Source of the DNA: Mobula hypostoma
Taxonomy: Eukaryota
Length of the DNA stretch: 64,000 nucleotides
Reading direction: 5' to 3'
Assembly (NCBI RefSeq): GCF_963921235.1
Contig: NC_086097.1
Coordinates: 105,774,001-105,838,000 of the forward strand
Shown here: positions 23,286 to 63,700 of the stretch, one piece after another
Position numbering within the stretch: the first letter of the stretch is position 1
Layout: the number at the start of each line of letters is the position of its first letter
Program-made: the position numbers and the translations under genes
Notes under the pieces: model-generated
Told to the model about the DNA's origin: nothing
Seen by the model: only the letters and a program-made list of their open reading frames with translations
The model's database searches: none

Positions 23286-23523
23286 ACAACAGGAATTCTG
23301 CAGATGCTGGAAATTCAAGCAACACACATCAAAGTTGCTGGTGAATGCAGCAGGCCAGGCAGCATCTCTAGGAAGAGGTACAGTCGACGTTTCAGGCCGA
23401 GACCCTTCATCAGGTTCGTTGGTCGAGTCCTGACGAAGGGTCTCGGCCTGAAACGTCGACTGTACCTCTTCCTAGAGATGCTGCCTGGTCTGCTGCGTTC
23501 ACCAGCAACTTTGATGTGTGTTG
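23286..23523. mobile_element. Penelope-like element remnant: two inverted pLTR ends with 15-bp TSD
   Basis: Arms 23320-23414 and 23429-23523 are near-perfect inverted repeats. The left arm has an extra ~34-nt tail. cttccatatatgcta occurs at 23271-23285 and 23524-23538. Confidence 0.8.
23426..23461 (+). ncRNA. Minimal type I hammerhead ribozyme
   Basis: AGUC-CUGACGA-AGG(gucucgg)CCU-GAAA-CG-UC-GACU. Stem I is AGUC/GACU, the catalytic core is complete, stem II is 3 bp, and palindromic ACGU replaces stem III. Confidence 0.75.
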
Positions 23524-25089
23524 CTTCCATATATGCTATGCCAGTTTCCTGGGTAAATACTGATGCAAAAAAACTGTTAAGATCTCCCCCATCTCGTGAG
23601 GCTCCACACATAGATGACCACTCTGATCTTCTAGGGGACCAATTTTGTCCCTTACTATCCTTTTACTTTTAATATACTTGTAGAAAACTTTCGGGTTTAA
23701 CTTCACATTATCTGCCAAAGTAACCTCATGTCTTCTTTTTGCCTTCCTGATTTCCTTCTTTAGTAATTTCTTACATTTTCTATACTCTTCAAGTACATCA
23801 TTTGTTCATTGTTGCCTATACCTGCTATACACCTCTCTGTTTTTCTTAACCAGATCACCAATATCCCTCGAAAACCAAGGTTCCCTATGTCTGTTGACTT
23901 TGCCTTTAATCCTGGCAGGAACATGCAAACTCTGCACTCTCAAAATTTTGCCTTTGAAGACCTTCCATTTACTGAACACACCCTTGCCAGAAAACAACTT
24001 ATCCCAATCCACTCTTCCTAGATCCTTTCTCATTTCCACAAAATTGGTCCTTCTCCAATTTAGAACCTCAACTTGAGGACCTGACCTATCCTTATCCTCA
24101 ACTGTATTGGTCTCTGCCTTTCCTTTGGATTCAATCAGCTGCATGGAGAGGGAGAGCCTACTACGTGGGCAACAACTTGCTCTCCATGTCATACGGCCCA
24201 GGCTTGCGTACAGGCTGGCATATCAGGTAGTCAGCTGAAATGCGACCTCCATGGTTGACCTTGACCAACGCAGGGCCTCAAATGGGCTGTACTTCAGATT
24301 TTGTTAGCTTCAGGGCCAGAGCTTCAGGAGTGTGACTGTGGTGACGGAAGGATTGGCAAAGTATGCCTATATTGGAACTGAAGAGGGACTTGCTCACCTT
24401 GTCCTTCTGGGTAGTAGAGATAGCCAGATCAGGAGGAAGCCCCAGTGAGCATCTAGCAGGATGCGCAGTGCAGCTGTGGAGTAGGGGTGGCGGGTAGGAG
24501 AAGTGGTGTAATGATCACACTCTCACCGAGACAGTGACGGGCTTTCTGAGGCAGTTGGGTGTGGAATCAGCTGGGGAGTAATCCAATCACTCCATATGTA
24601 TATTGCGGTTGGTTGAAAGTAGGCGCTGAGTGATTTATAGAAGGTTTGTAGTGTGTAAACTCTGGTGTGTTGTGATACCATTATCAGTGATGCACTAATC
24701 CCATTACCATCGCTGTCAGTGAGAAGAACCCACTCCAGCTGGACTTGCTGAATGAACCACTAACACTTAGGCTGCTCCAAGCCTCCAGAGAAAGGCCATG
24801 TTGAAGTGGAGATTTTCTACACAGTGCTATCCTGTGCCGAGCTGCTTGCTGGCTGGATGTTCACTGCGGAGGACTCATCCTCTGGAAGGAAGTCCAACAT
24901 AACTGAGCATGTATATATAAACCAGGAATACACTGGTAACCCATCCAAAGGACCCGTTTCCATGTGGTAAAACTCTCAGACTGTGTATTTTCCTCTATAG
25001 ATGCTGCTTGACTCAAAGAATTCCTTCAGTTTCTCCAAATATTTCTAATTAACATGTTTGGGTAGAAGTTTTTTGCTTGTTCATGAAGC

Positions 25090-30969: not shown

Positions 30970-31045
30970 TGAGAAGAGTGATACAGCATAGGAAGAGGCC
31001 CTGAGGCCCACTGCATCCATTCAGACCACTTTGCCCATCTACATT
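30970..31045 (-). mobile_element. CR1 3' terminus running directly into the 39-bp array
   Basis: agagtgatacagcataggaagaggccctgaggcccactgcatccat matches the other minus-strand CR1 tails here (11058, 19810, 21640). Confidence 0.65.
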
Positions 31046-40000: not shown

Positions 40001-43000
40001 TCTTCATTGCCTCCCCTCCATCCTTGCATCCGGACATGCCCATCTACATTGCCCCCCCCATCCCTACATCAGGACATGCCCATCTACATTGCCCCCCCTC
40101 CATCCCTACATCAGGACATGCCCATCTACATTGCCCCTGTCTCTGCATCAAGACATGCCCATTTACATTGCCCCCCTGTCTCTGCATCAGGACATGCCCA
40201 TCTACATTGCCCCTGTCTCTGCATCAAGACATGCCCATCTACATTGCCCCCCTGTCTCTGCATCAGGACATGCCCAACTACATTGCCCCTGTGTCTCTGC
40301 ATCAGGACATGCCCATCTACATTGCCCCCCTGTCTCTGCATCAAGACATGCCCATCTACATTGCCCCCCTGTCTCTGCATCAGGACATGCCCATCTACAT
40401 TGCCCCCTGTCCCTGCATCAGGACATGCCCATCTACATTGCCCCCCAACCCTGCATCGGGACATGCCCATCTACATTGCCCCCCTGTCCCTGCATCAGGA
40501 CATGCCCATCTACATTGCCCCCTGTCCCTGCATCAGGACATGCCCATCTACATTGCCCTTGTCCCTGCATCAGGACATGCCCATCTACATTGCCCCCTGT
40601 CCCTGCATCAGGACATGCCCATCTACATTGCCCCCCATCCCTGCATCAGGACATGCTGATCTACATTGCCCCCCATCCCTGCATCAGGACATGCCCATCT
40701 ACGTTGCCCCCCCTCCATCCCTGCATCCGGACATGCCCATCTACATTGCCCCCCCTCCATCCCTACATCAGGACATGCCCATCTACATTGCCCCCCCTCC
40801 ATCCCTACATCAGGACATGCCCATCTACATTGCCCCTGTCTCTGCATCAAGACATGCCCATCTACATTGCCCCCCTGTCTCTGCATCAGGACATGCCCAA
40901 CTACATTGCCCCTGTGTCTCTGCATCAGGACATGCCCATCTACATTGCCCCCCTGTCTCTGCATCAAGACATGCCCATCTACATTGCCCCCCTGTCTCTG
41001 CATCAGGACATGCCCATCTACATTGCCCCCTGTCCCTGCATCAGGACATGCCCATCTACATTGCCCCCTGTCCCTGCATCGGGACATGCCCATCTACATT
41101 GCCCCCCTGTCCCTGCATCAGGACATGCCCATCTACATTGCCCCCAACCCTGCATCGGGACATGCCCATCTACATTGCCCTTGTCCCTGCATCAGGACAT
41201 GCCCATCTACATTGCCCCCCTGTCCCTGCATCAGGACATGCCCATCTACATTGCCCCCCATCCCTGCATCAGGACATGCCCATCTACATTGCCCCCCTGT
41301 CCCTGCATCAGGACATGCCCATCTACATTGTCCCCCTGTCCCTGCATCAGGACATGCCCATCTACATTGCCCCCCTGTCCCTGCATCAGGACATGCCCAT
41401 CTACATTGCCCCCCTGTCCCTGCATCAGGACATGCCCATCTACATTGTCCCCCATCCCTGCATCAGGACATGCCCATCTACATTGCCCCCCTGTCCCTGC
41501 ATCAGGACATGCCCATCTACATTGCCCCCCTGTCCCTGCATCAGGACATGCCCATCTACATTGCCCCCCATCCCTGCATCAGGACATGCCCATCTACATT
41601 GCCCCCCTGTCCCTGCATCAGGACATGCCCAACTACATTGCCCCTGTGTCTCTGCATCAGGACATGCCCATCTACATTGCCCCCCTGTCTCTGCATCAAG
41701 ACATGCCCATCTACATTGCCCCCCTGTCTCTGCATCAGGACATGCCCATCTACATTGCCCCCTGTCCCTGCATCAGGACATGCCCATCTACATTGCCCCC
41801 CAACCCTGCATCAGGACATGCCCATCTACATTGCCCCCCTGTCCCTGCATCAGGACATGCCCATCTACATTGTTCCCTTGTCCCTGCATCAGGACATGCC
41901 CATCTGCATTGCCCCCCATCCCTGCATCAGGACATGCCCATCTACATTGTCCCCCTGTCCCTGCATCAGGACATGCCCATCTACATTGCCCCCCATCCCT
42001 GCATCAGGACATGCCCATCTACATTGCCCCCCCTCCATCCCTGCATCCGGACATGCCCATCTACATTGCCCCCCCTCCATCCCTACATCAGGACATGCCC
42101 ATCTACATTGCCCCCCCTTCATCCCTGCATCAGGACATGCCCATCTACATTGCCCCCCTGTCTCTGCATCAGGACATGCCCATCTACATTGCCCCTGTCT
42201 CTGCATCAAGACATGCCCATCTACATTGCCCCCCTGTCTCTGCATCAGGACATGCCCAACTACATTGCCCCTGTGTCTCTGCATCAGGACATGCCCATCT
42301 ACATTGCCCCCCTGTCTCTGCATCAAGACATGCCCATCTACATTGCCCCCCTGTCTCTGCATCAGGACATGCCCATCTACATTGCCCCCTGTCCCTGCAT
42401 CAGGACATGCCCATCTACATTGCCCCCCAACCCTGCATCGGGACATGCCCATCTACATTGCCCCCCTGTCCCTGCATCAGGACATGCCCATCTACATTGC
42501 CCCCAACCCTGCATCGGGACATGCCCATCTACATTGCCCCCCTGTCCCTGCATCAGGACATGCCCATCTACATTGTCCCCCATCCCTGCATCAGGACATG
42601 CCCATCTACATTGCCCCCCTGTCCCTGCATCAGGACATGCCCATCTACATTGTCCCCCATCCCTGCATCAGGACATGCCCATCTACATTGCCCCCCTGTC
42701 CCTGCATCAGGACATGCCCATCTACATTGCCCCCCTGTCTCTGCATCAGGACATGCCCATCTACATTGCCCCCTGTCCCTGCATCAGGACATGCCCATCT
42801 ACATTGCCCCCCATCCCTGCATCAGGACATGCCCATCTACATTGCCCCCCTGTCCCTGCATCAGGACATGCCCATCTACATTGCCCCCTGTCCCTGCATC
42901 AGGACATGCCCATCTACATTGCCCCCTGTCCCTGCATCAGGACATGCCCATCTACATTGCCCCCTGTCCCTGCATCAGGACATGCCCATCTATATTGCCC

Positions 43001-44720
43001 CCTGTCCCTGCATCAGGACATGCCCATCTACATTGTTCCCTTGTCCCTGCATCAGGACATGCCCATCTGCATTGCCCCCCATCCCTACATCAGGACATGC
43101 CCATCTGCATTGCCCCCCATCCCTACATCAGGACATGCCCATCTACATTGCCCCCCATCCCTGCATCAGGACATGCCCATCTACATTGTCCCCCTGTGTC
43201 TGCATCAGGACATGCCCATCTACATTGCTCCCCCTCCCTGCATCAGGACATGCCCATCTGCATTGCCCCCCTGTCCCTGCATCAGGACATGCCCATCTAC
43301 ATTGTCCCCCTGTCCCTGCATCAGGACATGCCCATCTACATTGCCCCCTGTCCCTGCATCAGGACATGCCCATCTACATTGCCCCCTGTCCCTGCATCAG
43401 GACATGCCCATCTACATTGCCCCCTGTCCCTGCATCAGGACATGCCCATCTACATTGCCCCCTGTCCCTGCATCAGGACATGCCCATCTACATTGTCCCC
43501 CTGTCCCTGCATCAGGACATGCCCATCTGCATTGCCCCCCTGTCCCTGCATCAGGACATGCCCATCTGCATTGCCCCCCTGTCCCTGCATCAGGACATGC
43601 CCATCTACATTGCCCCCTGTCCCTGCATCAGGACATGCCCATCTACATTGTCCCCCTGTCCCTGCATCAGGACATGCCCATCTACATTGCCCCCTGTCCC
43701 TGCATCAGGACATGCCCATCTACATTGTCCCCCTGTCCCTGCATCAGGACATGCCCATCTACATTGCCCCCTGTCCCTGCATCAGGACATGCCCATCTAC
43801 ATTGTCCCCCATCCCTGCATCAGGACATGCCCATCTACATTGCCCCCCATCCCTGCATCAGGACATGCCCATCTACATTGCCCCCCATCCCTGCATCAGG
43901 ACATGCCCATCTACATTGTCCCCCTGTCCCTGCATCAGGACATGCCCATCTACATTGCCCCCTGTCCCTGCATCAGGACATGCCCATCTGCATTGCCCCT
44001 CATCCTTGCATCAGGACATGCGCATCTACATTGTCCCCCTGTCCCTACATCAAGACATGCCCATCTGCATTGCCCCTCATCCCTGCATCAGGACATGCCC
44101 ATCTGCATTGCCCCCCTGTCCCTGCATCAGGACATGCCCATCTACATTGCCCCCCATCCCTGCATCAGGACATGCCCATCTACATTGTCCCCCTGTGTCT
44201 GCATCAGGACATGCCCATCTACATTGCCCCCCATCCCTGCATCAGGACATGCCCATCTACATTGCCCCTGTGTCTGCATCAGGACATGCCCATCTGCATT
44301 GCCCCTCATCCCTGCATCAGGACATGCCCATCTATATTGCCCCCTGTCACTGCATCAGGACATGCCCATCTGCATTGCCCCCCTGTCCCTGCATCAGGAC
44401 ATGCCCATCTACATTGTTCCCTTGTCCCTGCATCAGGACATGCCCATCTGCATTGCCCCCCTGTCCCTACATCAGGACATGCCCATCTACATTGTCCCCC
44501 TGTCCCTGCATCAGGACATGCCCATCTACATTGCCCCCTGTCCCTGCATCAGGACATGCCCATCTTCATTGGTCCCTTGTCCCTGCATCAGGACATGCCC
44601 ATCTACATTGCCCCCCTGTCCCTGCATCAGGACATGCCCATCTACATTGTCCCCCTGTCCCTGCATCAGGACATGCCCATCTACATTGCCCCCCATCCCT
44701 GCATCAGGACATGCCCATCT
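31033..44720. repeat. ~39-bp (37-42) C-rich minisatellite, roughly 350 copies, truncated by gap
   Basis: Unit gcccatctacattgcccccctgtccctgcatcaggacat. Length varies through the poly-C tract. Confidence 0.98.
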
Positions 44721-44920
44721 NNNNNNNNNNNNNNNNNNNNNNNNNNNNNNNNNNNNNNNNNNNNNNNNNNNNNNNNNNNNNNNNNNNNNNNNNNNNNNNN
44801 NNNNNNNNNNNNNNNNNNNNNNNNNNNNNNNNNNNNNNNNNNNNNNNNNNNNNNNNNNNNNNNNNNNNNNNNNNNNNNNNNNNNNNNNNNNNNNNNNNNN
44901 NNNNNNNNNNNNNNNNNNNN
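44721..44920. other. Scaffold gap (200 N)
   Basis: A run of exactly 200 N between two different tandem arrays. The true size is unknown. Confidence 0.99.
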
Positions 44921-47900
44921 TTTCAAAGAACTCAGAATCATGTGGGAAGTTAACCAAAGGTGTTTCCATTAGGTTTGCAGTAAGTACCATGGTGTAAAAT
45001 TGAAATGTATACTATTTGTACCGTTAAAGCTTTGTATGCACTGAGATAACAACTTTTTTGACTTGATGTGTAGAGACATGAGACAACTTTCAGACATCTC
45101 AGAATCATGTGGGAAGTTAACCTAAGGTGTTTCCATTAGGTTTGCAGTAAGTACTTTGGTGTAAAATTGAAGTGCATACTAATTGCATTGTCAAAGCTTT
45201 GTACGCACTGAGATAACAACTTTCTTGTCTTGATGTGTAGAGGCATGAAACAACTTTCAAACTACTCATACTCATGTGGGAAGTTAACTTAAAATGTTTC
45301 CGTCAGGTTTGCACTCTGCACTTTGGTGGAAAATTGAAATGTATACAACTTTAATGTCAGAACATTGTATGCACTGAGAAAGCAACTTTTTTGTCTTTAT
45401 GAGCAGAGGCATGAAACAACTTGAAAACTGCTCACCATCATCTGTGAAGGCAACCAAAGTTGTTTCCATCAGGTTTGCAGTAAGTAGATTGGTGTAAAAT
45501 TGAAATGTATACTATTTGTATTGTTATAGCTTTGTATGCACTGAGATAACAACTTTATTGTCTTGATGTGTAGAGGCATGAAACAACTTTCAAACTACTC
45601 ATAATCATGTGGGAAGTTAACCTGAGGTGTTTCCATTAGGTTTGCAGTAAGTACTTTGGTGTAAAATTGAAGTGCATACTAATTGCATTGTCAAAGCTTT
45701 GTACACACTGAGATAACAACTTTTTTGTCTTGATGTGTAGAGGCATGAAACAACTTTCAAACTACTCATACTCATGTGGGAAGTTAACTTCAAATGTTTC
45801 CGTCAGGTTTGCACTCTGAACTTTGGTGGAAAATTGAAATGTATACTACTTGAATGTCAGAACATTGTACGCACTGAGAAAGCAACCTTTTTGTCTTGAT
45901 GAGCAGAGTGATGAAACAACTTTCAAACTACTCATAATCATGTGGGAAGTTAACCAAAGGTGTTTCCATTAGGTTTGCAGTCAGGACTTTTGAGTACAAT
46001 TGAAATGTATACTACTTTTATGTCAAAGCATTGTATTCACTGAGAAATCAACTTTTTTGTCTTTACGTGCAGAGGCATGAAACAACTTTAAAACTACTCA
46101 TAATCATGTTGGAAGTTAACTTAAAATGTTTCCATGAGGTTTGCACTCTGCACTTTGATGTAAAATTGAAATGTATGCTACTTGAATGTCAGAACATTGT
46201 ATGCACTGAGATAACAACTTTTTTGTCTTGATGTGTAGAGACATGAAACAACTTTCAGACATCTCTGAATCATGTGGGAAGTTAACCTAAGGTGTTTCCA
46301 TTAGGTTTGCAGTAAGTACTTTGGTGTAAAATTGAAGTGCATACTAATTGCATTGTCAAAGCTTTGTACGCACTGAGATAACAACTTTCTTGTCTTGATG
46401 TGTAGAGGCATGAAACAACTTTCAAACTACTCATACTCATGTGGGAAGTTAACTTAAAATGTTTCCGTCAGGTTTGCACTTTGCACTTTGGTGGAAAATT
46501 GAAATGTATACAACTTTAATGTCAGAACATTGTATGCACTGAGAAAGCAACTTTTTTGTCTTTATGAGCAGAGGCATGAAACAACTTGAAAACTGCTCAC
46601 CATCATCTGTGAAGGCAACCAAAGTTGTTTCCATCAGGTTTGCAGTAAGTAGATTGGTGTAAAATTGAAATGTATACTATTTGTATTGTCAAAGCTTTGT
46701 ATGCACTGAGATAACAACTTTATTGTCTTGATGTGTAGAGGCATGAAACAACTTTCAAACTACTCATAATCATGTGGGAAGTTAACCTGAGGTGTTTCCA
46801 TTAGGTTTGCAGTAAGTACTTTGGTGTAAAATTGAAGTGCATACTAATTGTATTGTCAAAGCTTTTTTATGCACTCAGATAACAACTTTTTTGTCTTGAT
46901 GTGTAGAGGCATGAAACAACTTTCAAACTACTCATACTCATGTGAGAAGTTAACTTAAAATGTTTCCATCAGGATTGCACTCTGCACTTTGGTGGAAAAT
47001 TGAAATGTATACTACTTGAATGTCAGAACATTGTACGCACTGAGAAAGCAACTTTTTTGTCTTGATGAGCAGAGTCATGAAACAACTTTCAAACTACTCA
47101 TATTCATGTTGGAAGTTACCCAAAGGTGTTTCCTTTAGGTTTGCAGTCAGGACTTTTAAGTACAATTGAAATGTATACTACATTTAAGTCAAAGCATTGT
47201 ATTCACTGAGAAATCAACTTTTTTGTCTTCATGTGCAGAGGCATGAAAGAACTTTCAGACATCTCAGAATCATGTGGGAAGTTAACCTAAGGTGTTTCCT
47301 TTAGGTTTGCAGTCAGGACTTTTGAGTACAATTGAAATGTATACTACTTCTATGTCAAAGAATTGTATTCACTGAGAAATCAACTTTTTTGTCTTTATGT
47401 GCAGAGGCATGAAACAACTTTCAGATATCTCAGAATCATGGTGGAAGTTAACCTAAGGCGTTTCCATTTGGTCTGAAGTCAGTACTTTGGTGTAAAATTG
47501 AAATGTATACTATTTGTATTGTCAAAGCACTGTATGCACTCAGAAAACAACTCTTTTGTCTTGCTGTGCAGAGGCATGAAACAACTTTCAAACATCTCAG
47601 TATCATGTGGGAAGTTAACCTAAGTTGTTTCCATTAGGTTTGCAGTAAATACTTTGGTGTAAAATTGAAATGTATGCTAAGTGTATTGTCAAAGCTTTGT
47701 ATGCATTGAGATAACAACTTTTTTGTCTTTATGAGCAGAGGCATGAAACAACTTGAAAACTGCTCACCATCATCTGTGAAGGCAACCAAAGTTGTTTCCA
47801 TCAGGTTTGCAGTAAGTAGATTGGTGTAAAATTGAAATGTATACTATTTGTATTGTCAAAGCTTTGTATGCACTGAGATAACAACTTTATTGTCTTGATG

Positions 47901-50297
47901 TGTAGAGGCATGAAACAACTTTCAAACTACTCATAATCATGTGGGAAGTTAACCTGAGGTGTTTCCATTAGGTTTGCAGTAAGTACTTTGGTGTAAAATT
48001 GAAGTGCATACTAATTGTATTGTCAAAACTTTTTTATGCACTCAGATAACAACTTTTTTGTCTTGATGTGTAGAGGCATGAAACAACTTTCAAACTACTC
48101 ATACTCATGTGAGAAGTTAACTTAAAATGTTTCCATCAGGATTGCACTCTGCACTTTGGTGGAAAATTGAAATGTATACTACTTGAATGTCAGAACATTG
48201 TACGCACTGAGAAAGCAACTTTTTTGTCTTGATGAGCAGAGTCATGAAACAACTTTCAAACTACTCATAATCATGTGGGAAGTTAACCAAAGGTGTTTCC
48301 TTTAGGTTTGCAGTCAGGACTTTTAAGTACAATTGAAATGTATACTACATTTAAGTCAAAGCATTGTATTCACTGAGAAATCAACTTTTTTGTCTTCATG
48401 TGCAGAGGCATGAAAGAACTTTCAGACATCTCAGAATCATGTGGGAAGTTAACCTAAGGTGTTTCCTTTAGGTTTGCAGTCAGGACTTTTGAGTACAATT
48501 GAAATGTATACTACTTCTATGTCAAAGAATTGTATTCACTGAGAAATCAACTTTTTTGTCTTTATGTGCAGAGGCATGAAACAACTTTCAGATATCTCAG
48601 AATCATGGTGGAAGTTAACCTAAGGCGTTTCCATTTGGTCTGAAGTCAGTACTTTGGTGTAAAATTGAAATGTATACTATTTGTATTGTCAAAGCACTGT
48701 ATGCACTCAGAAAACAACTCTTTTGTCTTGCTGTGCAGAGGCATGAAACAACTTTCAAACATCTCAGTATCATGTGGGAAGTTAACCTAAGTTGTTTCCA
48801 TTAGGTTTGCAGTAAATACTTTGGTGTAAAATTGAAATGTATACTAAGTGTACTGTCAAAGCTTTGTATGCATTGAGATAACAACTTTTTTGTCTTCATG
48901 TGTAGAGGCATGAAACAACTTTCAAACTACTCATAATCATGTGGGAAATCAACCTAAGGTGTTTCCATCAGGTTTGCATTCTGCACTTTGGTGGAAAATT
49001 GAAATGTATACTACTTGAATGTCAGAACATTGTATGCACTGAGAAAGCAACCTTTTTGTCTTGATGAGCAGAGTCATGAAACAACTTTCAAACCACTCAT
49101 AATCATGTGGGAAGTTAACCAAAGGTGTTTCCATTAGGTGTGCTGTCAGGACTTTGGAGTACAATTGAAATGTATACTACATTTATGTCAAAGCATTGTA
49201 TTCACTGAGAAATCAACTTTATTGTCTTCATGTGCAGAGGCATGAAACAACTTTCAGACATCTCAGAATCATGTGGGAAGTTAACCTAAGGTGTTTCCTT
49301 TAGGTTTGCAGTCAGGACTTTTCAGTACAATTGAAATGTATACTAATTTTATGTCAAAGCATTGTATTCACTGAGAAATCAACTTTTTTGTCTTTACGTG
49401 CAGAGGCATGAAACAACTTTAAAACTACTCATAATCATGTTGGAAGTTAATTTAAAATGTTTCCATGAGGTTTGCACTCTGCACTTTGATGTAAAATTGA
49501 AATGTATGCTACTTGAATGTCAGAACATTGTTTGCACTGAGAAAGCAACTTTTTTGTCTTAATGAGCAGAGGCATGAAACAACTTTCAAACTACTCATAA
49601 CGATGTGGGAAAGTAAGCAAAGGTGTTTGCATTAGGTTTGCAGTCCGGACTTTTCAGTACAATTGAAATGTATGTCAGAGAATGTCAAAGAATTCTATTC
49701 ACTGAGAAATCAACTTTTCTGTCTTTATGTGCAGAGGCATGAAACAACTTTCACACATCTCAGAATCATTTGGGAAGTTAACCTAATGTGTTTCCATTAG
49801 GTTTGCAGTAAGTGCTTTGGTGTAAAATTGAAAAGTATACAATTTGTATTATCAAAGCTTTGTATGCACTGAGATAACAAATTTTTTGTCTTGATGTGTA
49901 GTGGCATGAAACAACTTTCAAACTACTCATAATCATGTGGGAAGTTAACCTAAGGTGTTTCCATTAGGCTTGCAGTAAGTACTTTGGTGTAAAATTGAAA
50001 TGAAATCTATTTGTATTCTCAAAGCATTGTATACACTGAGAAAACAACTTGTTTGTCTTGCGGTGCAGAGGCATGAAACAACTTTCACACATCTCAGAAT
50101 CATTTGGGAAGTTAACCTAAGGTGTTTCCATTAGGCTTGCAGTAAGTACTTTGGTGTAAAATTGAAATGAAATCTATTTGTGTTCTCAAAGCATTGTATA
50201 CACTGAGAAAACAACTTGTTTGTCTTGCTGTGCAGAGGCATGAAACAACTTTCAAAGAACTCAGAATCATGTGGGAAGTTAACTTAAAATGTTTCCA

Positions 50298-50722
50298 ACA
50301 GGAATTCTGCAGATGCTGGAAATTCAACCAACATACATCAAAGTTGCTGGTGAACGCAGCAGGCCAGGCAGCATCTATAGGAAGAGGCGCAGTCGACGTT
50401 TCAGGCCGAGACCCTTCGTCAGGACTAACTGAAGGAAGAGTGAGTAAGGGATTTGAAAGCTGGAGGGGGAGGGGGAGATACAAAATGATAGGAGAAGACA
50501 GGAGGGGGAGGGATGGAGCCGAGAGCTGGACAGCTGATAGGCAGAAGGGGATACGAGAGGATCATGGGACAGGAGGTCCGGGAAGAAAGACGGGGGGGGG
50601 GCGGTGACCCAGAGGATGGGCAAGAGGTATATTCAGAGGGACAGAAGGAGAAAAAGGAGAGTGAGAGAAAGAATGTGTGCATAAAAAAGAGTAACAGATG
50701 GGGTACGAGGGGGAGGTGGGGC
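50298..50722 (-). mobile_element. Penelope-like element 3' end/pLTR (left arm, with tail)
   Basis: Same terminus as 23286 (acaggaattctgcagatgctggaaattcaa), continuing into purine-rich pLTR sequence. Contains a hammerhead motif. Confidence 0.8.
50391..50426 (-). ncRNA. Minimal type I hammerhead ribozyme
   Basis: The reverse complement reads agtc-ctgacga-agggtctcggcct-gaaa-cg-tc-gact, an intact core. Confidence 0.75.
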
Positions 50723-53291
50723 CTCATGGAAACATTTTAAATTAACTTCCAACATGATTATGAGTAGTTTTAAAGTTGTTTCATGCCTCTGCACGTAAAG
50801 ACAAAAAAGTTGATTTCTCAGTGAATACAATGCTTTGACATAAAATTAGTATACATTTCAATTGTACTGAAAAGTCCTGACTGCAAACCTAAAGGAAACA
50901 CCTTAGGTTAACTTCCCACATGATTCTGAGATGTCTGAAAGTTGTTTCATGCCTCTGCACATGAAGACAATAAAGTTGATTTCTCAGTGAATACAATGCT
51001 TTGACATAAATGTAGTATACATTTCAATTGTACTCCAAAGTCCTGACAGCACACCTAATGGAAACACCTTTGGTTAACTTCCCACATGATTATGAGTGAT
51101 TTGAAAGTTGTTTCATGACTCTGCTCATCAAGACAAAAAGGTTGCTTTCTCAGTGCATACAATGTTCTGACATTCAAGTAGTATACATTTCAATTTTCCA
51201 CCAAAGTGCAGAATGCAAACCTGATGGAAACACCTTAGGTTGATTTCCCACATGATTATGAGTAGTTTGAAAGTTGTTTCATGCCTCTACACATCAAGAC
51301 AAAAAAGTTGTTATCTCAATGCATACAAAGCTTTGACAATACACTTAGTATACATTTCAATTTTACACCAAAGTATTTACTGCAAACCTAATGGAAACAA
51401 CTTAGGTTAACTTCCCACATGATACTGAGATGTTTGAAAGTTGTTTCATGCCTCTGCACAGCAAGACAAAAGAGTTGTTTTCTGAGTGCATATAGTGCTT
51501 TGACAATACAAATAGTATACATTTCAATTTTACACCAAAGTACTGACTTCAGACCAAATGGAAACGCCTTAGGTTAACTTCCACCATGATTCTGAGATAT
51601 CTGAAAGTTGTTTCATGCCTCTGCACATAAAGACAAAAAAGTTGATTTCTCAGTGAATACAATTCTTTGACATAGAAGTAGTATACATTTCAATTGTACT
51701 CAAAAGTCCTGACTGCAAACCTAAAGGAAACACCTTAGGTTAACTTCCCACATGATTCTGAGATGTCTGAAAGTTCTTTCATGCCTCTGCACATGAAGAC
51801 AAGAAAGTTGATTTCTCAGTGAATACAATGCTTTGACTTAAATGTAGTATACATTTCAATTGTACTGAAAAGTCCTGACAGCAAACCTAAAGGAAAAACC
51901 TTTGGTTAACTTCCCACATGATTATGAGTAGTTTGAAAGTTGTTTCATGACTCTGCTCATCAAGACAAAAAAGTTGCTTTCTCAGTGCGTACAATGTTCT
52001 GACATTCAAGTAGTATACATTTCAATTTTCCACCAAAGTGCAGAGTGCAATCCTGATGGAAACATTTTAAGTTAACTTCTCACATGAGTATGAGTAGTTT
52101 GAAAGTTGTTTCATGCCTCTACACATCAAGACAAAAAAGTTGTTATCTGAGTGCATAAAATAGTTTTGACAATACAATTAGTATGCACTTCAATTTTACA
52201 CCAAAGTACTTACTGCAAACCTAATGGAAACACCTCAGGTTAACTTCCCACATGATTATGAGTAGTTTGAAAGTTGTTTCATGCCTCTACACATCAAGAC
52301 AATAAAGTTGTTATCTCAGTGCATACAAAGCTTTGACAATACAAATAGTATACATTTCAATTTTACACCAATCTACTTACTGCAAACCTGATGGAAACAA
52401 CTTTGGTTGCCTTCACAGATGATGGTGAGCAGTTTTCAAGTTGTTTCATGCCTCTGCTCATAAAGACAAAAAAGTTGCTTTCTCAGTGCATACAATGTTC
52501 TGACATTAAAGTTGTATACATTTCAATTTTCCACCAAAGTGCAGAGTGCAAACCTGACGGAAACATTTTAAGTTAACTTCCCACATGAGTATGAGTAGTT
52601 TGAAAGTTGTTTCATGCCTCTACACATCAAGACAAGAAAGTTGTTATCTCAGTGCGTACAAAGCTTTGACAATGCAATTAGTATGCACTTCAATTTTACA
52701 TCAAAGTGCTTACTGCAAACCTAATGGAAACACCTTAGGTTAACTTCCCACATGATTCAGAGATGTCTGAAAGTTGTTTCATGTCTCTACACATCAAGAC
52801 AAAAAAGTTGTTATCTCAGTGCATACAATGTTCTGACATTCAAGTAGCATACATTTCAATTTTACATCAAAGTGCAGAGTGCAAACCTCATGGAAACATT
52901 TTAAGTTAACTTCCAACATGATTATGAGTAGTTTTAAAGTTGTTTCATGCCCTGCACGTAAAGACAAAAAAGTTGATTTCTCAGTGAATACAATGCTTTG
53001 ACATAAAATTAGTATACATTTCAATTGTACTGAAAAGTCCTGACTGCAAACCTAAAGGAAACACCTTAGGTTAACTTCCCACATGATTCTGAGATGTCTG
53101 AAAGTTGTTTCATGCCTCTGCACATGAAGACAATAAAGTTGATTTCTCAGTGAATACAATGCTTTGACATAAATGTAGTATACATTTCAATTGTACTCAA
53201 AAGTCCTGACTGCAACCCTAATGGAAACACCTTTGGTTAACTTCCCACATGATTATGAGTAGTTTGAAAGTTGTTTCATCACTCTGCTCAT

Positions 53292-53540
53292 TGTTACGAG
53301 AATACACATAAAATTAAGATGTTTGCTGGCCTGGGCTAGCATCAGTGGCATCAGCAGTTGGTCTGCCACCTGCCCTCAGGGGAAGGAGAGATAAGGAACA
53401 ATGGAGCAGCGTCTGGAGATGTGTAATGAAGGGATGTGGGAGAGAGAGCTGTCTGGAGCGGCTCCCCCCTTTGAACCCTGAACTGTTTTGAAGTGATGGA
53501 CAGGCGATACCCCAGCAGGGGGATAAAAAGGGGGATAAAA
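53292..53540. mobile_element. Truncated LTR-like fragment
   Basis: Non-satellite block starting abruptly with TGTTACG (LTR-type TG end). It ends after a duplicated ggggataaaaag, with no closing CA and no TSD. Confidence 0.55.
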
Positions 53541-56466
53541 AGTTGTCTCATGTCTCTACACATCAAGTCAAAAAAGTTGTTATCTCAGTGCATACAAAGC
53601 TTTAACAGTACAAATAGTATACATTTCAATTTTACACCATGGTACTTACTGCAAACCTAATGGAAACACCTTTGGTTAACTTCCCACATGATTCTGAGTT
53701 CTTTGAAAGTTGTTTCATGCCTCTGCTCATCAAGACAAAAAAGTTGCTTTCTCAGTGCATACAATGTTCTGACATTCAAGTAGTATACATTTCAATTTTA
53801 CATCAAAGTGCAGATTGCAAACCTGATGGAAACATTTTAAGGTAACTTCTGACATGATTATGAGTAGTTTTAAAGTTGTTTCATGGCTCCACACATCAAG
53901 AAAAAAAAGTTGCTTTCTCAGTACATACAACGTTCTGACTTTAAAGTTGCATGCATTTCAATTTTCCAACAAAGTGCAAAGTGCAAACCTGATGGAAACA
54001 CCTTAGGTTAACTTCCCACATGATTCTGAGATGTCTGAAAGTTGTTTCATGCCTCTGCACATAAAGACATAAAACTTGATTTCTCAGTGAATACAATGCT
54101 TTGACATAAAAGTAGTATACATTTCAATTGCACTCAAAAGACCTGACTGCAAACCTGATGGAAACCATTTAAGTTAACTTCCCACATGATTATGAGTAGT
54201 TTGAAAGTTGTTTCATGCCTCTGCACATAAAGACATAAACCTTGATTTCTCAGTGAATACAAAGCTTTGGCATAAATGTAGTATACATTTAAAATGTAGT
54301 TAAAAGTCCTGACTGCAAACCTAATGGAAACACCTTTGGTTAACTTCCCACATGATTATGAGTAGTTTGAAAGTTGTTTCATGACTCTGCTCATAAAGAC
54401 AAAAAAGTTGCTTTCTCAGTGCATACAATGTTCTGACATTCAAGTAGTATACATTTCAATGTTCCACCAAAGGTCAGAGTGCAAACCTGATGGAAACATT
54501 TTAAGTTAACTTCCAACATGATTATGAGTAGTTTGAAAGTTTTTTTCATGGCTCTACACATCAAGACAACAAAGTTGTTATCTCAGTGCGTACAAAGCTT
54601 TGACAATACAATTAGTATGCATTTCAATTTTACACCAAAGTACTTACTGCAAACCGAATGGAAACACCTTTGGTTAACTTCCCAGATGATGGTGAGTAAT
54701 TTTCAAGTTGTTTCATGCCTCTGCTCATCAAGAGAAAAAAGTTGCTTTCTCAGTGCATACAATGTTCTGACAATAAAGTAGTATACATTTCAGTTTTTCA
54801 CCGAAGTGCAGAGTGCAAACCTAATGGAAACATTTTAAGTTAACTTCCCACATGATTATGAGTTCTTTGAAAGTTGTTTCATGCCTCTGTACAGCAAGAC
54901 AAAAAAGTTGCTATCTCAGTGCATACAAAGCTTTGACAATACAAATAGTATACATTTCAATTTTACACCAAAGTACTTACTGCAAACCTAATGGAAACAA
55001 CTTAGGTTAACTTCCCACATGATTCTGAGATGTCTGAAAGTTGTTTCATGTCACTGCAGTGTAAGACAAAAAAGTTGATTTCTCAGTGCATACAATCCTT
55101 TGACAATACAAGTAGTGAACAGTTCAATTTTACACCAAAGTACTTACTGCAAACCTAATGGAAACACCTTAGGTTAACTTCCCACATGATTCTGAGATGT
55201 CTGAAAGTTGTTCCATGCCTCTGCACATAAAGACAAAAAAGTTGATTTCTCAGTGAATACAATGCTTTGACATAAAAGTAGTATACATTTCAATTGTACT
55301 CAAAAGACCTGACTACAAACCTGATGGAAACCATTTAAGTTAACTTCCCACATGATTATGAGTAGTTTGAAAGTTTTTTCATGGCTCTACACATCAAGAC
55401 AACAAAGTTGTTATCTCTGTGCGTACAAAGCTTTGACAATAGAATTAGTATGCATTTCAACTTTACACCAAAGTACTTACTGCAAACCTAATGGAAACAC
55501 CTTTGGTTAACTTCCCAGATGTGGGTGAGTAGTTTTCAAGTTGTTTCATGCCTCTGCTCATCAAGACGAAAAAGTTACTTTCTTGGTGCATACAATGTTC
55601 TGACATTCAAGTAGTATACAGTTCAATTTTCCACCAAAGTGCAGAGTGCAAACCTGATGGAAACATTTTAAGTGAACTTCCCACATGATTCTGAGTTCTT
55701 TGAAAGTTGTTTCATGCCTTTGTACAGCAAGACAAAAAAGTTGTTTTCTCAGTGCATACAATGCTTAGACAATACCAATAGTATACATTACAATTTTACA
55801 CCAAAGTACTTACTGCAAACCTAATGGACACAATTTAAGCTTAATTTACCACATGATTATGAGTAGTTTGAAAGTTGTTTCATGCCTCTACACATCAAGA
55901 CAAAAAAGTTGTTATCTCAGTGCGTACAAAACTTTGACAAAACAATTAGTATGCACTACAATTTTACACCAAAGTACTTACTGCAAACTTAATGGAAACA
56001 CCTTAGGTTAACTTCCCACATGATTCTGAGATATCTGAAAGTTGTTTCATGCCTCTGCACATAAAGACAAAAAAGTTGATTTCTCAGTGAATACAATTCT
56101 TTGACATAAAAGTAGTATACATTTCAATTGTACTGAAAAGTCCTGACTGCAAACCTAATGGAAACAACTTTTCTTACCTTCCCACATGATTATGAGTAGT
56201 TTGAAAGTTGTTTCATGACTCTGCTCATCAAGACAAAAAAGTTGCTTTCTCAGTGCGTACAATGTTCTGACATTCAAGTAGTATACATTTCAATTTTCCA
56301 CCAAAATGCAGAGTGCAAACCTGATGGAAACATTTTAAGTTAACTTCTCACATGAGTATGAGTAGTTTGAAAGTTGTTTCATGCCTCTACACATCAAGAC
56401 AAAAAAGTTGTTATCTCAGTGCATACAAAGCTTTGACAATACAAATAGTATACATTTCAATTGTTA

Positions 56467-56726
56467 TTTCTTCCCGGACCTCCTGTCCCATGATCCTCTC
56501 GTATCCCCTTCTGCCTATCACCTGTCCAGCTCTCGGCTCCATCCCTCCCCCTCCTGTCTTCTCCTATCATTTTGCATCTCCCCCTCCCCCTCCAGCTTTC
56601 AATTCCCTTACTCACTCTTCCTTCAGTTAGTCCTGACGAAGGGTCTCGGCCTGAAACGTCGACTGCGCCTCTTCCTATAGATGCTGCCTGGCCTGCTGCG
56701 TTCACCAGCAACTTTGATGTATGTTG
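56467..56726 (+). mobile_element. Penelope-like inverted pLTR (right arm, no tail)
   Basis: Reverse complement of 50329-50588 with about three substitutions by eye. Confidence 0.8.
56629..56664 (+). ncRNA. Minimal type I hammerhead ribozyme
   Basis: agtc-ctgacga-agggtctcggcct-gaaa-cg-tc-gact, identical to 23426-23461. Confidence 0.75.
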
Positions 56727-59604
56727 CTTAAAATGTTTCCATCAGGTTTGCATTCTGCACTTTGGTGTAAAATTGAAATGTATACTATTTATATTGTCAA
56801 AGCTTTGTATGCACTGAGATAACAACTTTTTTGTCTTGATTTGCAGAGGCATGACACAACTTTCAGACATCTCAGCATCACGTGGGAAGTTAACCTAAGG
56901 TGTTTCCATTAGGCATGCAGTAAGTACTTTGGTGTAAAATTGAAGTGCATACTAATTGTATTGTCAAAGCTTTGTACGCACTCAGATAACAACTTTTTTG
57001 TCTTGATGTGTAGAGGCATGAAACAACTTTCAATCTACTCATAATCATGTGGGAAGTTAACTTAAAATGTTTCCATCAGGTTTGCACTCTGCACTTTGGT
57101 GGAAAATTGAAATGTATACTACTTGAATGTTAGAACATTGTATGCACTGAGAAAGCAACTTTTTTCTCTTGATGAGCGGAGGCATGAAACAACTTTCAAA
57201 CTACTCATACTGATGTGGGAAGGTAAGCAAAGGTGTTTCCATTAGGTTTGCAGTCAGGACTTTTCAGTAAAATTGAAATGTATACTACTTTTGCCAAAGC
57301 ATTTTATTCACTGAGAAATCAAATTTTATGTCTTTATGTGCAGAGGCATGAAACAACTTTCAGACATCTCAGAATCATGTAGGAAGTAAAACTAATGTGC
57401 TTCCATCAAGTTTGCAGTCAGTACTTTGGTGTAAAATTGAAGTGCATACTAATTGTATTGCCAAAGCTTTGAACGCACTCAGATAACAACTTTTTTGTCT
57501 TGATGTGCAGAGGCATGAAACAACTTTTAAACTACTCATAATCATGTGGGAAATTAACTTAAAATGTTTCCATCAGGTTTGCACTCTGTACTTTGGTGGA
57601 AAATTGAAATGTATACTACTTCAATGTCGGAACATTGTATGCACTGGGAAAGCAACTTTTTTGTCTTGATGAGCAGAGTCATGAAACAACTTTCAAACTA
57701 CTCATAATCATGTGGGATGTTATCAAAGGTGTTTCCATTAGGTTTTCACTCAGGACTATTCAGTACAATTGAAATGTATACTACTTTTATGCCAAGCATT
57801 GTATTCACTGAGAAATCAACTTTGTCTTTATGTGCAGAGGCATAAAACAACTTTCAGACATCTCAGAATCAGGTGGGAATTTAACCTAAGGTGTTTCCAT
57901 TAGGTATGCAGTAAGTACTTTGGTGTGAAATGGAAATGTATACTATTTGTATTGTCAAAGCTTTGTATGCACTGAGATAACAACTTTTTTTCTTGATGTG
58001 TGGAGGCATGAAACAACTTTCAAACTACTCATAATCATGTGGGAAGTTAACCTGAGTTGTTTCCATTAGGTTTGCAGTAAGTACTTTGGTGTAAAATTGA
58101 AATGTATTGTCAAAGCTTTGTATGCACTGAGATAACAACTTTTTTGTCTTGATGTGTAGAGGCATGAAACAACTTTCAGACATCTCAGAATCATGTGGGA
58201 AGTTAACCAAAGGTGTTTCCATCAGGTATGCAGTAAGTACTTTGGTGTAAACTTGAAATGTATACAACTTTATTGTCAGAATGTTGTATGCACTGAGAAA
58301 GCAACTTTTTTGTCTTGATGTGTAGAGGCATTAAACAACTTTAACACTACTCATAATCATGTGGGAAGTTAACTTAAAATGTTACCATCAGGTTTGCACT
58401 CTGCACTTTGGTGGAAAATTGAAATGTATACTACATGAATGTCAAAACATTGTACGCACTGAGAAAGCAATTTTATTGTCTTGATGAGCAGAGTCATGAA
58501 ACAACTTTCAAACTGCTCATAATCATGTGGGAAGTTAACCTGAGTTGTTTCCATTAGGTTTGCAGTAAGTACTTTGGTGTAAAATTGAAATGTATTGTCA
58601 AAGCTTTGTATGCACTGAGATAACAACTTTTTTGTCTTGATGTGTAGAGGCATGAAACAACTTTCAGACATCTCAGAATCATGTGGGAAGTTAACCAAAG
58701 GTGTTTCCATTAGGTTTGCATTCAGTACTTTGGTGTAAAATTGAAGTGCATACTAATTGTATTGTCAAAGCTTTGTACGCACTGAGATAACAACTTTTTT
58801 GTCTTGATGTGTAGAGGCATGGAACAACTTTCAAACTACTCATAATCATGTGGGAAGTTAACTTAAAATGATTCCATCAGGTTTGCACTCTGCACTTTGG
58901 TGGAAAATTGAAATGTATACTACTTCAATGTCAGAACATTGTACGCACTGAGAAAGCAACTTTTTTGTCTTGATGAGCAGTGTCATGAAACAACTTTCAA
59001 ACTACTCATAATCATGTGGGAAGTTAACTTAAAATGTTTCCATCAGGTTTGCACTCTGCACTTTGGTGGAAAATTGAAATGTATACTACTTGAATGTCAG
59101 AACATTGTACGCACTGAGAAAGCAACTTTTTTGTCTTGATGAGCAGAGTCATGAAACAACTTTCAAACTACTCATAATCATGTGGGAAGTTAACCAAAGG
59201 TGTTTCCATTAGGTTTGCAGTCAGGACTTCTCAGTACAATTGAAATGTACACTAGTTTCGACAAAGCATTGTATTCACTGAGAAATCAAGTTTTATGTCT
59301 TTATGTGCAGAGGCATGAAACAACTTTCAGACATCTCAGAATCATGTGGGAAGTTAACCTAATGTGTTTCCATTAGGTTTGCAGTCAGTACATTGGGGTA
59401 AAATTGAAGTGCATACATATTGTATTGTCAAAGGTTTGTACGCACTGAGATAACAACTTGTTTGTCCTGATGTGTAGAGGCATGAAACAACTTTCAAACT
59501 ACTCATAATCATGTGGGACGTTAACCTCAGGTGTTTCCATTAGGTTTGCAGTAAGTACTTAGGTGTAAAATTGAAGTACATACTAATTGTATTGTCAAAG
59601 CTTT

Positions 59605-60706
59605 ACATAGAAACATAGAAAATAGGTGCAGGAGTAGGCCATTCGGCCCTTTGAGCCTGCACCGCTATTTATTATGATCATGGCTGATCATCCAACTCAG
59701 AACCCAGCCTTCCCTCCATACCCCCTGACCCCTGTAGCCACAAGGGCCATATCTAACTCCCTCTTAAACATAGCCAATGAACTGGCCTCAACAGTTTGCT
59801 GTGGCAGAGAATGCCACATATTCACCACTCTCTGTGTGAAGAAGTTTTTCCTAATCTCGGTCCTAAAAGGCTTCCCCTCTATCCTCAAACTGTGACCCCT
59901 CGTTCTGGACCTCCCCAACATCGGGAACAATCTTCCCGCATCTAGCCTGTTCAATCCCTTTAGGATCTTATACGTTTCAATCAGATCCCCCTCAATCTTC
60001 TAAATTCCAACGAGTACAAGCCCAGTTCATCCAGTCTTTCTTCATTGAAAGACCTGACATCCCAGGAATCAATCTGGTGAACCTTCTTTGTACTCCCTCT
60101 ATGGCAAAGATGTCTTTCCTCAGATTAGGGAACAAAACTGCACACAATACTCCAGGTGTGGTCTCACCAAGGCCTTGTACAACTGCAGTAGTACCTCCCT
60201 GCTCCTGTACTCGAATCCTCTCGCTATAAATGCCAGCATACCATTCGCCTTTTTCACCGCCTGCTGTACCTGCATGCCCACTTTCAATGACTGGTGTATA
60301 ATGACACCCAGGTCTCGTTGCACCTCCCCTTTTCCTAATCGGCCACCATTCAGATAATAATCTGTTTTCCTATTTTTGCCACCAAAATGGATAACTTCAC
60401 ATTTATCCACATTAAATTGCATCTCCCATGAGTTTGCCCACTCACCCAACCTATCCAAGTCACCCTGCATCCTCTTAGCATCCTCCTCACTGCTAACACT
60501 GCCACCCAGCTTCGTGTCATCCGCAAACTTGGAGATGCTGCATTTAATTCCCTCATCCAAGTCATTAATATATATTGTAAACAACTGGGGTCCCAGCACT
60601 GAGCCTTGCGGTACCCCACTAGTCACCGCCTGCCATTCTGAAAAGGTCCCGTTTATTCTCACACTTTGCTTCCTGTCTGCTAACCAATTCTCCACCCACA
60701 CCAATA
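59605..60706 (-). mobile_element. CR1 LINE 3' fragment inserted in the satellite
   Basis: Tail acatagaaacatagaaa and motifs WVENWLADRKQ...GVPQGSVLGPQLF...KFADDTKLGG...LVRPHLEYCVQF. Confidence 0.95.
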
Positions 60707-63700
60707 TCTGAGATAACAACGTTTTTGTCTTGATGTGTAGAGGCATGAAGCAACTTTCAAACTACTCATAATCATTTGGGAAGTTAACTTAAAATGTTTC
60801 CATCAGGTTTGCACTCTGCACTTTGGTGGAAAATTGAAATGTATGCTACTTGAATGTCAGAACATTGTACGCACTGAGAAAGCAACTTTTTTGTCTTGAT
60901 GAGCAGAGTCATGAAACAACTTTCAAAGTACTCATAATCATGTGGGAAGTTAACCAAAGGTGTTTCCATGAGGTTTGCAGTCAGGACTTTGGAGTCAATT
61001 GAAATGTATACTACTTTTGCCAAAGCATTTTATTCACTGAGAAATCAAATTTTATGCCTTTATGTGCAGAGGCATGAGACAACTTTCAGACATCTCAGAA
61101 TCATGTGGGAAGTTAACCTAATGTGTTTCCATTAGGTTTGTAGTCAGTACTTTGGTGTAAAATTGAAGTGCATACTAATTGTATTGTCAAAGCTTTGTAC
61201 GCACTGAGATAACAACTTTTTTGTCTTGATTTGTAGAGGGATGAAACAACTTTCAAACTACTCATAATCATGTCAGAAGTTAACTTAAAATGATTCCATC
61301 AGGTTTGCACTCTGCACTTTGATGTAAAATTGAAATGTATACTACTTGAATGTCAGAACATTGTATGCACTGAGACAGCAACTTTTTTCTCTTGTTGAGC
61401 AGAGGCATGAAACAACTTTCAAAGAACTCAGAATCATGTGGGAACGTAACTTAAAATGCTTCCATCAGGTTTGCACTCTGCACTTGTAAAATTGAAATGT
61501 ACACTATTTGTATTGTCAAAGCTTTGTATGCACTGAGATAACAACTTTTTTGTCTTGATGTGTAGAGGCATGAAACAACTTTCAGACATCTCAGAATCAC
61601 GTGGGAAGTTAACCTAAGGTGTTTCCATCAGGTTTGCAGTAAGTACTTTGGTGTAAAATTGAAGTGCATACTAATTGTATTGTCAAAGCTTTGAACGCAC
61701 TCAGATAACAACTTTTTTGTCTTGATGTGCAGAGGCATGAAACAACTTTCAAACTACTCATAATCATGTGGGAAGTTAACTTACAGTGTTTCCATCAGCT
61801 TTGCACTCTGTACTTTGGTGGAAAATTGAAATGTATGCTACTTCAATGTCGGAACATTGTATGCACTGAGAAAGCAATTTTTTTGTCTTGATGAGCAGAG
61901 TCATGAAACAACTTTCAAACTACTCATAATCATGTGGGAAGTTATCCAAAGGTGTTTCCATTAGGTTTGCACTCAGGACTTTTGAGTACAATTGAAATGC
62001 ATACTACTTTTATGTCAAAGCATTGTATTCACTGAGAAAACAACTTTTTTGTCTTGCTGTGCAGAGGCATGAAACAACTTTCAAACTACTCATAATCATG
62101 TGGGAAATTAACCTAAGTTGTTTCCACCAGGTTTGCAGTAAGTTCTTTGGAGTAAAACTCTAATGTATACTATTTGTTTTATCAAAGCATTGTATGCACT
62201 GATAAAACTACTTTTTTGTCTTGCTGTACAGAGGCATCAAACAACGTTCAAAGAACTCCAAATCATGTGGGAAGTTAACTTAAAATTTTCCATCAGGTTT
62301 GCAATCTGCACTTTGGTGTAAAATTGAACTGTATACTACTTGAATGTCAGAACATTGTATGCACTGAGAAAGCAACTTTTTCGTCTTGATGAGCAGAGTC
62401 ATGAAACAACTTTCAAACTACTCAGTATCATGTGGGAAGTTAACCTTAGTTGTTTTCATTAGGTTTGCAGTCAGGACTATTGAGTACAATTGAAATGTAT
62501 ACTACTTTTATGTCAAAGCATTGTATTCACTGAGAAATCAACTTATTTCTCTTTATGTGCAGAGGCGTGATACAACTTTCAGACATCTCAGAATCATGTG
62601 GGAATTTAACCTAAGGTGTTTCCATTAGGTATGCAGTAAGTACTTTGGTGTGAAATGGAAATGTATACTATTTGTATTGTCAAAGCTTTGTATGCACTGA
62701 GATAACAACTTTTTTTCTTGATGTGTGGAGGCATGAAACAACTTTCAAACTACTCATAATCATGTGGGAAGTTAACCTGAGTTGTTTCCATTAGGTTTGC
62801 AGTAAGTACTTTGGTGTAAAATTGAAATGTATTGTCAAAGCTTTGTATGCACTGAGATAACAACTTTTTTGTCTTGATGTGTAGAGGCATGAAACAACTT
62901 TCAGACATCTCAGAATCATGTGGGAAGTTAACCAAAGGTGTTTCCATCAGGTATGCAGTAAGTACTTTGGTGTAAACTTGAAATGTATACAACTTTATTG
63001 TCAGAATGTTGTATGCACTGAGAAAGCAACTTTTTTGTCTTGATGTGTAGAGGCATTAAACAACTTTAACACTACTCATAATCATGTGGGAAGTTAACTT
63101 AAAATGTTACCATCAGGTTTGCACTCTGCACTTTGGTGGAAAATTGAAATGTATACTACATGAATGTCAAAACATTGTACGCACTGAGAAAGCAACTTTA
63201 TTGTCTTGATGAGCAGAGTCATGAAACAACTTTCAAACTGTTCATAATCATGTGGGAAGTTAACCAAAGGTGTTTCCATTAGGTTTGCAGTAAGTCCTTT
63301 GGTGTAAAATTGAAATGTATACTATTTGTATTGTCAAAGCTTTGTATGACTGAGATAACAACTTTTTTGTCTTGATGTGTAGAGGCATGAAACAACTTTC
63401 AAACTACTCGTAATCATGTGGAAAGTTAACCTGAGGTGTTTCCATTAGGTTTGCATTCAGTACTTTGGTGTAAAATTGAAGTGCATACTAATTGTATTGT
63501 CAAAGCTTTGTACGCACTGAGATAACAACTTTTTTGTCTTGATGTGTAGAGGCATGGAAGAACTTTCAAACTGCTCATAATCATGTGGGAAGTTAACTTA
63601 AAATGATTCCATCAGGTTTGCACTCTGTACTTTGGTGGAAAATTGAAATGTATACTACTTCAATGTCAGAACATTGTACGCACTGAGAAAGCAACTTTTT

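Follow-up and report, generated by a model that had tools for sequence, protein, structure and literature searches.

The 64,000-nucleotide stretch of the Mobula hypostoma genome analysed here (the window; contig NC_086097.1, positions 105,774,001 to 105,838,000 of the forward strand, with coordinates counted from its first base) contains a satellite of 166-bp monomers that switches strand around a Penelope-like retroelement. The satellite runs from 44921 to the end of the window, in forward orientation at 44921-50297, reversed at 50722-56462 (broken at 53292-53541), and forward again from 56727. The reversed segment, which we call the cargo, is framed by two head-to-head pseudo-long terminal repeats (pLTRs), and the cargo and both pLTRs (6.4 kb) lie inside one identical 15-base duplication. 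The block at 50298-56726 is best read as an insertion together with its repair scar, and it bears no sign of function. We consider it probable, at roughly 0.65, that it arose through one insertion of an endonuclease-bearing Penelope-like element, during which the end of the complementary DNA (cDNA) snapped back to a point in the adjacent array 827 bases upstream, from which a tract of at least 5.5 kb was then copied.

A preliminary description of this DNA had proposed that the satellite from 50722 onward is the reverse complement of the sequence running backwards from 49470, and our alignments bear this out. The mirror begins where 50722 pairs with 49470, and the forward arm at 44921-49470 (plus strand) holds the donor monomers that are mirrored in the cargo. 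By mirror alignment and shared 21-mers, cargo part 1 (50722-53291, minus strand) is an inverted copy of 49470 to 45899, and by mirror alignment cargo part 2a (53542-53708, minus strand) is an inverted copy of 45087 to 44921. We counted divergence on four ungapped mirror paths only, namely 50726-52477 against 49466-47715 (9 differences in 1752 bases), 52478-52951 against 46547-46074 (3 in 474), 53199-53291 against 45991-45899 (1 in 93), and 53542-53708 against 45087-44921 (1 in 167, where the next-best monomer has 11 differences). Together these give 14 differences in 2486 bases, or 0.56% (95% interval 0.31-0.94%), against a satellite background of 15.5%, the mean monomer-to-monomer divergence over 4851 pairs. 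The count omits the 247 bases at 52952-53198, which lack a mirror partner and agree exactly with 49157-49403. For each of the 15 full monomers of 50722-53291, divergence is lower from the left forward array (mean 0.7%) than from the right arrays (7.2%), and 952 of the 1718 21-mers of this segment are common to the left arm only, while none is common to the right arrays only. The mirror is therefore genuine; it is collinear and, as far as arrays within this window go, specific to the adjacent arm.

Other elements of the preliminary description can be judged from the same alignments. Each of the six rare variants it cited occurs once forward and once reversed within 44.9-64 kb, four of them at the positions it gave; the other two had been cited without coordinates. 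Alignment of the inverted block to 44921-49470, which had been suggested beforehand, yields, for 50722-53291, a collinear match that is closer than the match to the right arrays in the window. The claim that the mirror resumes past a long terminal repeat (LTR) fragment and matches 45087-44921 is correct apart from its start, which is 53542 rather than 53543. The structure is also, as had been proposed, an inverted duplication and not a simple inversion, since both copies are present, 0.56% apart, on either side of a 1251-base spacer (49471-50721). The genomic part of this spacer, 49471-50297 (plus strand), comprises 827 bp in five monomers and is single-copy by monomer comparison, with four full monomers that each differ by at least 8% from every cargo monomer.

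The remainder of the spacer is the left pLTR (50298-50721, minus strand), which is truncated at its 5' end, carries a 31-base tail at its 3' end (50298-50328), and has a minimal hammerhead core predicted at approximately 50391-50426. The second pLTR (56467-56726, plus strand) lies head-to-head with the first, has no tail, and has its predicted core at approximately 56629-56664. The two copies differ at 3 of 260 bases, and their 5' ends face inwards. Between the cargo and the second pLTR are four junction bases (56463-56466) that depart from the left pLTR copy, and no microhomology was seen there. The target-site duplication has its left copy at 50283-50297 and its right copy at 56727-56741, where the forward satellite resumes (both plus strand, 15/15 identical). 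A motif scan found the CUGAnGA core, stem II, GAAA, the palindromic centre, and closing stem I in both arms, the minimal core descriptor for Penelope pLTRs being given in the accessible text of PMC4209133. Rfam returned no hammerhead at E-values up to 1, its sole match being a chance microRNA, and the fold of the monomer was no better than that of shuffled sequences (z 0.37). Both pLTR copies are cut down to the terminal repeat and contain neither a reverse-transcriptase nor an endonuclease gene, and longer copies of the element were sought in metagenome contigs by two motif scans, which recovered 0 loci.

A second insertion of the same family within the window, at 23271-23538, served as an internal control. 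It lies in non-satellite DNA, carries no cargo, and consists of inverted tailed and tail-less copies separated by approximately 13 bases, with the hammerhead core detected by motif scan in both copies and the tail on one arm only. It is flanked by a 15-bp duplication that begins with CTT, as does that of the cargo, and for its junction bases we found no local template better than two mismatches. The 15-mer around the cargo is by itself weak evidence, but this independent insertion shows the same outer geometry. The two cargo pLTRs share three diagnostic states that distinguish them from both control copies, which fits one template or one subfamily. A solo terminal repeat at 11376-11496 appears older and is more diverged, with 78% identity to the left arm.

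In the reading that we favor, the endonuclease would cut both strands 15 bases apart within a satellite monomer, and both 3' ends would then prime reverse transcription on pLTR RNA, as suggested by the anatomy of the insertion and by published biochemistry, in which a Penelope-type protein both cuts the two strands and extends them, and reverse transcription has two start sites with the tail between them (PMC11167929). The left cDNA would begin at the tail start and reach approximately 425 bases, and the right cDNA would begin at the inner start and reach 260 bases. The end of the left cDNA, with at most about one base of pairing, would switch to the plus strand at 49470, on the same chromatid after resection or on the sister. 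For the plus-strand 3' end at 50297, once extended to 50721, to continue into the reverse complement of 49470 leftwards, the template needs to be the upstream plus strand or an RNA of the same sense. If the opposite strand were resected after cleavage of both strands, the plus strand would lie exposed and a loop of 1251 bases would result. The orientation of the cargo would be that required when a 3' end folds back onto the strand upstream of itself. The backward extension would have covered at least 5.5 kb and probably 6.3-7.5 kb, the lower figure counting five deleted monomers and the upper applying if a 7-monomer unit was also lost. The extended end would then be released and joined to the right cDNA through the four filler bases, and second-strand fill-in would restore the flank. 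Afterwards the arms would have diverged by 0.56% and lost or gained whole monomers, and an LTR-like element would have inserted into the cargo and been mostly deleted together with five monomers. The end states of this sequence of events, namely the mirror and its collinearity, the spacer, the head-to-head pLTRs, the one-sided tail, and the 15-base duplication, are all observed directly.

Several observations weigh against this reading. The fold-back junction is abrupt and has no clear microhomology, so far as this can be judged from truncated copies of the element. In yeast, the local fold-backs described in the accessible part of PMC11724301 span 5-34 bases, far shorter than a multi-kilobase tract. 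A DNA and an RNA template would leave indistinguishable products, as would the same and the sister chromatid. The assignment to Penelope is drawn entirely from non-coding features, and the 15-mer of the target duplication is not unique in the satellite, where it has 9 forward and 7 reversed copies. We are also dealing with a single event for which no empty allele was seen: the empty-site comparison, which had only paralogous monomer runs to draw on, matched best at 91% over 401 bases and next best at 89%. Pointing in favor of the reading, the intact monomer at 61402-61564 ranks near the top for both outer half-monomers, third best for the left (3 differences) and best for the right (7 differences).

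Within the satellite monomer, the fold-back point has phase 67, which is 5 bases beyond the end of the target duplication (phase 62), a near-copy of the target word lies five monomers upstream (49452-49470), and the chance of such phase proximity is approximately 11/166 (about 7%). A second endonuclease nick at the fold-back point is therefore possible. A more specific and rather doubtful proposal is that cargo capture is DNA-templated in this way, with the end of a completed pLTR cDNA jumping, by hardly any pairing, onto a second nick in an equivalent target word and kilobases being copied by strand displacement. If true, DNA-templated capture would explain why introns are kept in host genes found between pLTRs, and Penelope insertions would repeatedly create strand switches and quasi-palindromes in arrays of satellite DNA. 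How Penelope-like elements come to carry intron-containing host DNA is left open in the available text of PMC3846280, which proposes an antisense or unspliced RNA template.

The same single insertion could also have proceeded on RNA, with the reverse transcriptase jumping from the RNA of the element onto a long RNA transcribed from the local satellite in the plus sense, an alternative that we regard as unlikely. R2 proteins pass from one RNA template to another and pick up other RNAs at 5' junctions (PMC11371274, as far as its text is available), and the scant homology at the junction here is in keeping with such a jump. Of the 14 arm differences, 9 are apparently cargo-derived, 4 forward-derived, and 1 unclear, and an excess on the cargo side is the direction expected of an error-prone polymerase; however, this excess is not significant (p 0.27). 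Copying from RNA would also require a transcript of the cut array of at least 5.5 kb that ended 827 bases from the cut, and no RNA run containing the stretch was among the runs listed, a weak result as the search was of the DNA kind.

It is less probable still that the inverted copy is separate from the insertion, having arisen by replication template switching or break repair at an existing head-to-head pLTR pair, or that an older cargo was later homogenised with the neighbouring array by gene conversion. The divergence between the pLTRs (1.2-1.5%) is nominally above the 0.56% between the arms, the array rearranges often, and the 247 cargo bases identical to another place in the arm would fit such a history. 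Nevertheless, the difference between arm (14/2486) and pLTR (3/260) divergence is not significant (Fisher p 0.21, or 0.08 when the first base of the target duplication is included), in a comparison of low power, and the two values are compatible with a single event. Differences are spread evenly along the arm (9/1752 against 5/734, p 0.57), and each end of the cargo adjoins the truncated 5' end of a pLTR, with no leftover sequence and four filler bases at most in between.

A history of tandem duplication, two independent insertions at equivalent monomer positions, and recombination between inverted pLTRs that flipped the middle, with the target duplication a coincidence, is very unlikely. The 15-mer is indeed common in the array, and the closeness of phases 67 and 62 makes the inner left junction resemble a target site, but the other inner junction is approximately 30 bases out of phase (91 against 62), and the right-flank continuation that this history predicts for the monomer at 49470 differs at 17 of 117 bases, compared with 7 of 114 for the best match. 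At least four events would be required, and the control insertion has the same outer geometry from one. An assembly artefact, in which the other haplotype or a fold-back read was joined through the pLTR repeats, is the most improbable of all: the contig does end, entirely within repeats, 167 bases beyond the last mirror that can be checked, and 53539-53561 has no contig cover in three of four public runs (X1-X3), a hole that proves nothing, but between the arms there are substitutions, differences of whole monomers, and an insertion, unlike what a fold-back read would yield, while the outer junctions match the element-specific geometry of the control and the inner junctions are abrupt, non-homologous truncations.

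Returning to the proposed snap-back insertion, its two arms also differ in structure. The cargo alone contains a 250-base truncated piece of a high-copy LTR-like element (53292-53541, plus strand), of which we found no second copy in the window. The family terminus lies at 53292, the fragment is cut near 53532, and a 12-base tandem lies at the cut. In public contigs, many different flanks precede 53292, and past approximately 53532 there is a shared, different continuation; this pattern indicates that 53292 is a true element end and that the other side was cut off. The fragment is putatively labelled LTR-like from its TG start; of the features sought (TG...CA termini, paired LTRs, and a target duplication), the TG start and the shared terminus at 53292 are present and the other end is missing. 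In the forward arm, the place of the fragment is taken by about five monomers without a mirror (45088-45898, plus strand, 811 bp).

Two further structural differences had been noted previously, an extra 7-monomer unit on the forward side and a missing monomer, and both are real. The extra unit (46548-47714, plus strand, 1167 bp) is a tandem twin of 47715-48881, and a single unit is present in the cargo. The statement that the forward side has an extra unit thus holds as a description, but the direction of change does not follow, as the cargo may equally have lost a unit, because a derived base is shared with one duplicate unit only. The twins differ at six sites, at five of which the cargo agrees with the second twin (47715-48881), and one of these five is a derived base lacking in the first twin (46548-47714). 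For the direction of the change, one site favors loss from the cargo and one is ambiguous, so the duplication may predate the cargo, which then lost one unit, although one site is too little to decide. The missing monomer is represented by a hybrid at 45906-46071 (plus strand), whose first 110 bases differ at one position from one cargo monomer and whose last 56 are identical to the next. The hybrid would be explained most simply by the loss of one monomer from the forward arm, and a double template switch in the cargo would have the same result. Another internal duplication is also visible in the forward arm, where 45.1-45.6 kb is nearly identical to 46.3-46.8 kb at an offset of 1165 bases (98-100/100 per bin).

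Beyond the last checkable mirror, the cargo continues as 2754 bp of inverted satellite (part 2b, 53709-56462, minus strand) that has no collinear partner in the window; of its 1936 21-mers, 1132 are absent from the rest of the satellite compared. The forward arm stops at an assembly gap of 200 N (44721-44920), which lies between a 38/77-bp minisatellite and the 166-bp satellite. A run of 200 N is a placeholder, and its size is arbitrary. We think it quite likely, as an extrapolation, that 53709-56462 mirrors DNA hidden in this gap, which would imply, with the same likelihood, at least 2.75 kb more satellite to the left of 44921 unless it was later deleted. This prediction is favored because, beyond the LTR-like fragment, the mirror starts again and persists as far as the last assembled base, and it is uncertain because both arms have gained or lost units since copying and template switches or later deletions are possible. 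Monomer comparisons give no signal here, as 8 of 17 cargo monomers (one being the known mirror) are nearer to the left array than to the right arrays, and the exclusive 21-mers number 173 and 138, respectively. Near the far end of the cargo, 56178-56416 closely matches 48044-48282 out of mirror order, and it carries a variant otherwise limited to the left arm and the cargo, a slight hint of a local origin. Public data consisted of contigs in every case: 15 of the 18 runs listed contain part of 50200-56900, none of them half of its words. Contigs from four runs were compared with 53240-53900; none spans it, and no alternative letter is listed in them, even at the known arm difference at 53607, which leaves no power to detect a hidden arm. 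An 81-base contig (run X2) matches 53804-53881 exactly, at a depth not readable as copy number. The 2.75-kb sequence prediction could help to size and close the gap.

The surroundings of the satellite are also rich in repeats. To the left of the gap, no 166-bp monomers were found (0 of 106 hits). Directly adjoining the gap on that side is a C-rich minisatellite of 13.7 kb (31032-44720) with a 38/39-bp unit and a 77-bp dimer, and a second C-rich array with a 35-bp unit occupies 26183-28708. To the right of the insertion, satellite at 57.9-59.4 kb is nearly identical to that at 62.6-64.0 kb, with 599/600 matches at an offset of 4725 and 96-100/100 per bin at an offset of 4569, suggesting a recent duplication of approximately 4.7 kb. 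This part of the satellite also contains a 1.1-kb dispersed repeat (59605-60707) with 77% identity to 14939-16018, which we take to resemble a fragment of a long interspersed nuclear element (LINE).

The insertion shares most of its parts with known systems. Host DNA capture by Penelope in Adineta vaga, as described in the accessible text of PMC3846280, likewise involves inverted pLTRs, an optional one-sided tail of 31 bases, and one duplication around the pLTRs and their cargo, and non-coding cargos between solo pLTRs are mentioned there. The cargo detailed in that text is a member of a dispersed gene family that lies between direct pLTRs and for which an empty allele was found, whereas our cargo has an adjacent, inverted donor and is enclosed by two inverted pLTRs, and we saw no empty allele. 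In a search of open-access literature covering titles and the beginnings of abstracts, supplements aside, we found no Penelope insertion that carries its own flank as an inverted copy, which is weak evidence of absence.

Snap-back synthesis has closer precedents in R2 and L1. In the portion of PMC11371274 available, the 3' ends of R2 cDNA prime further synthesis on target DNA close by, ahead of formation of the 5' junction, much as we propose for the left cDNA; R2 differs in being an engineered, site-specific element with one cDNA, and neither a several-kilobase tract nor a second element arm appears in that portion. L1 insertions, according to the available part of a preprint (bioRxiv 10.1101/2024.12.14.628481), generate local inverted duplications and insert-containing fold-back junctions through a two-strand cut during target-primed reverse transcription, resection, and self-priming, with an inverted copy of the flank and retention of the target duplication. 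Those events are somatic and human, and their inverted duplications are reported there at the reciprocal end with small hairpins, whereas here the copy starts at the cDNA end, the loop is 1.25 kb, cDNA is present on both ends, and the copies have had time to diverge. Fold-back inverted duplications, in the accessible texts on humans (PMC3907307) and yeast (PMC11724301), also have an inverted copy and its source split by a normal-copy spacer that marks the loop. The human cases involve dicentric chromosomes and short inverted sequences at the spacer edge (PMC3907307, as far as available); here, by comparison with both, retroelement cDNA forms part of the loop and the chromosome goes on unbroken. 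As a single function-less scar with precedents in R2 and L1, the insertion carries modest weight on its own, and it gives a concrete origin for a strand switch within a satellite array. An adjacent inverted donor and a single-copy loop are what DNA-templated snap-back predicts; each ingredient has already been published, and the insertion stands out in having an adjacent, identifiable donor.

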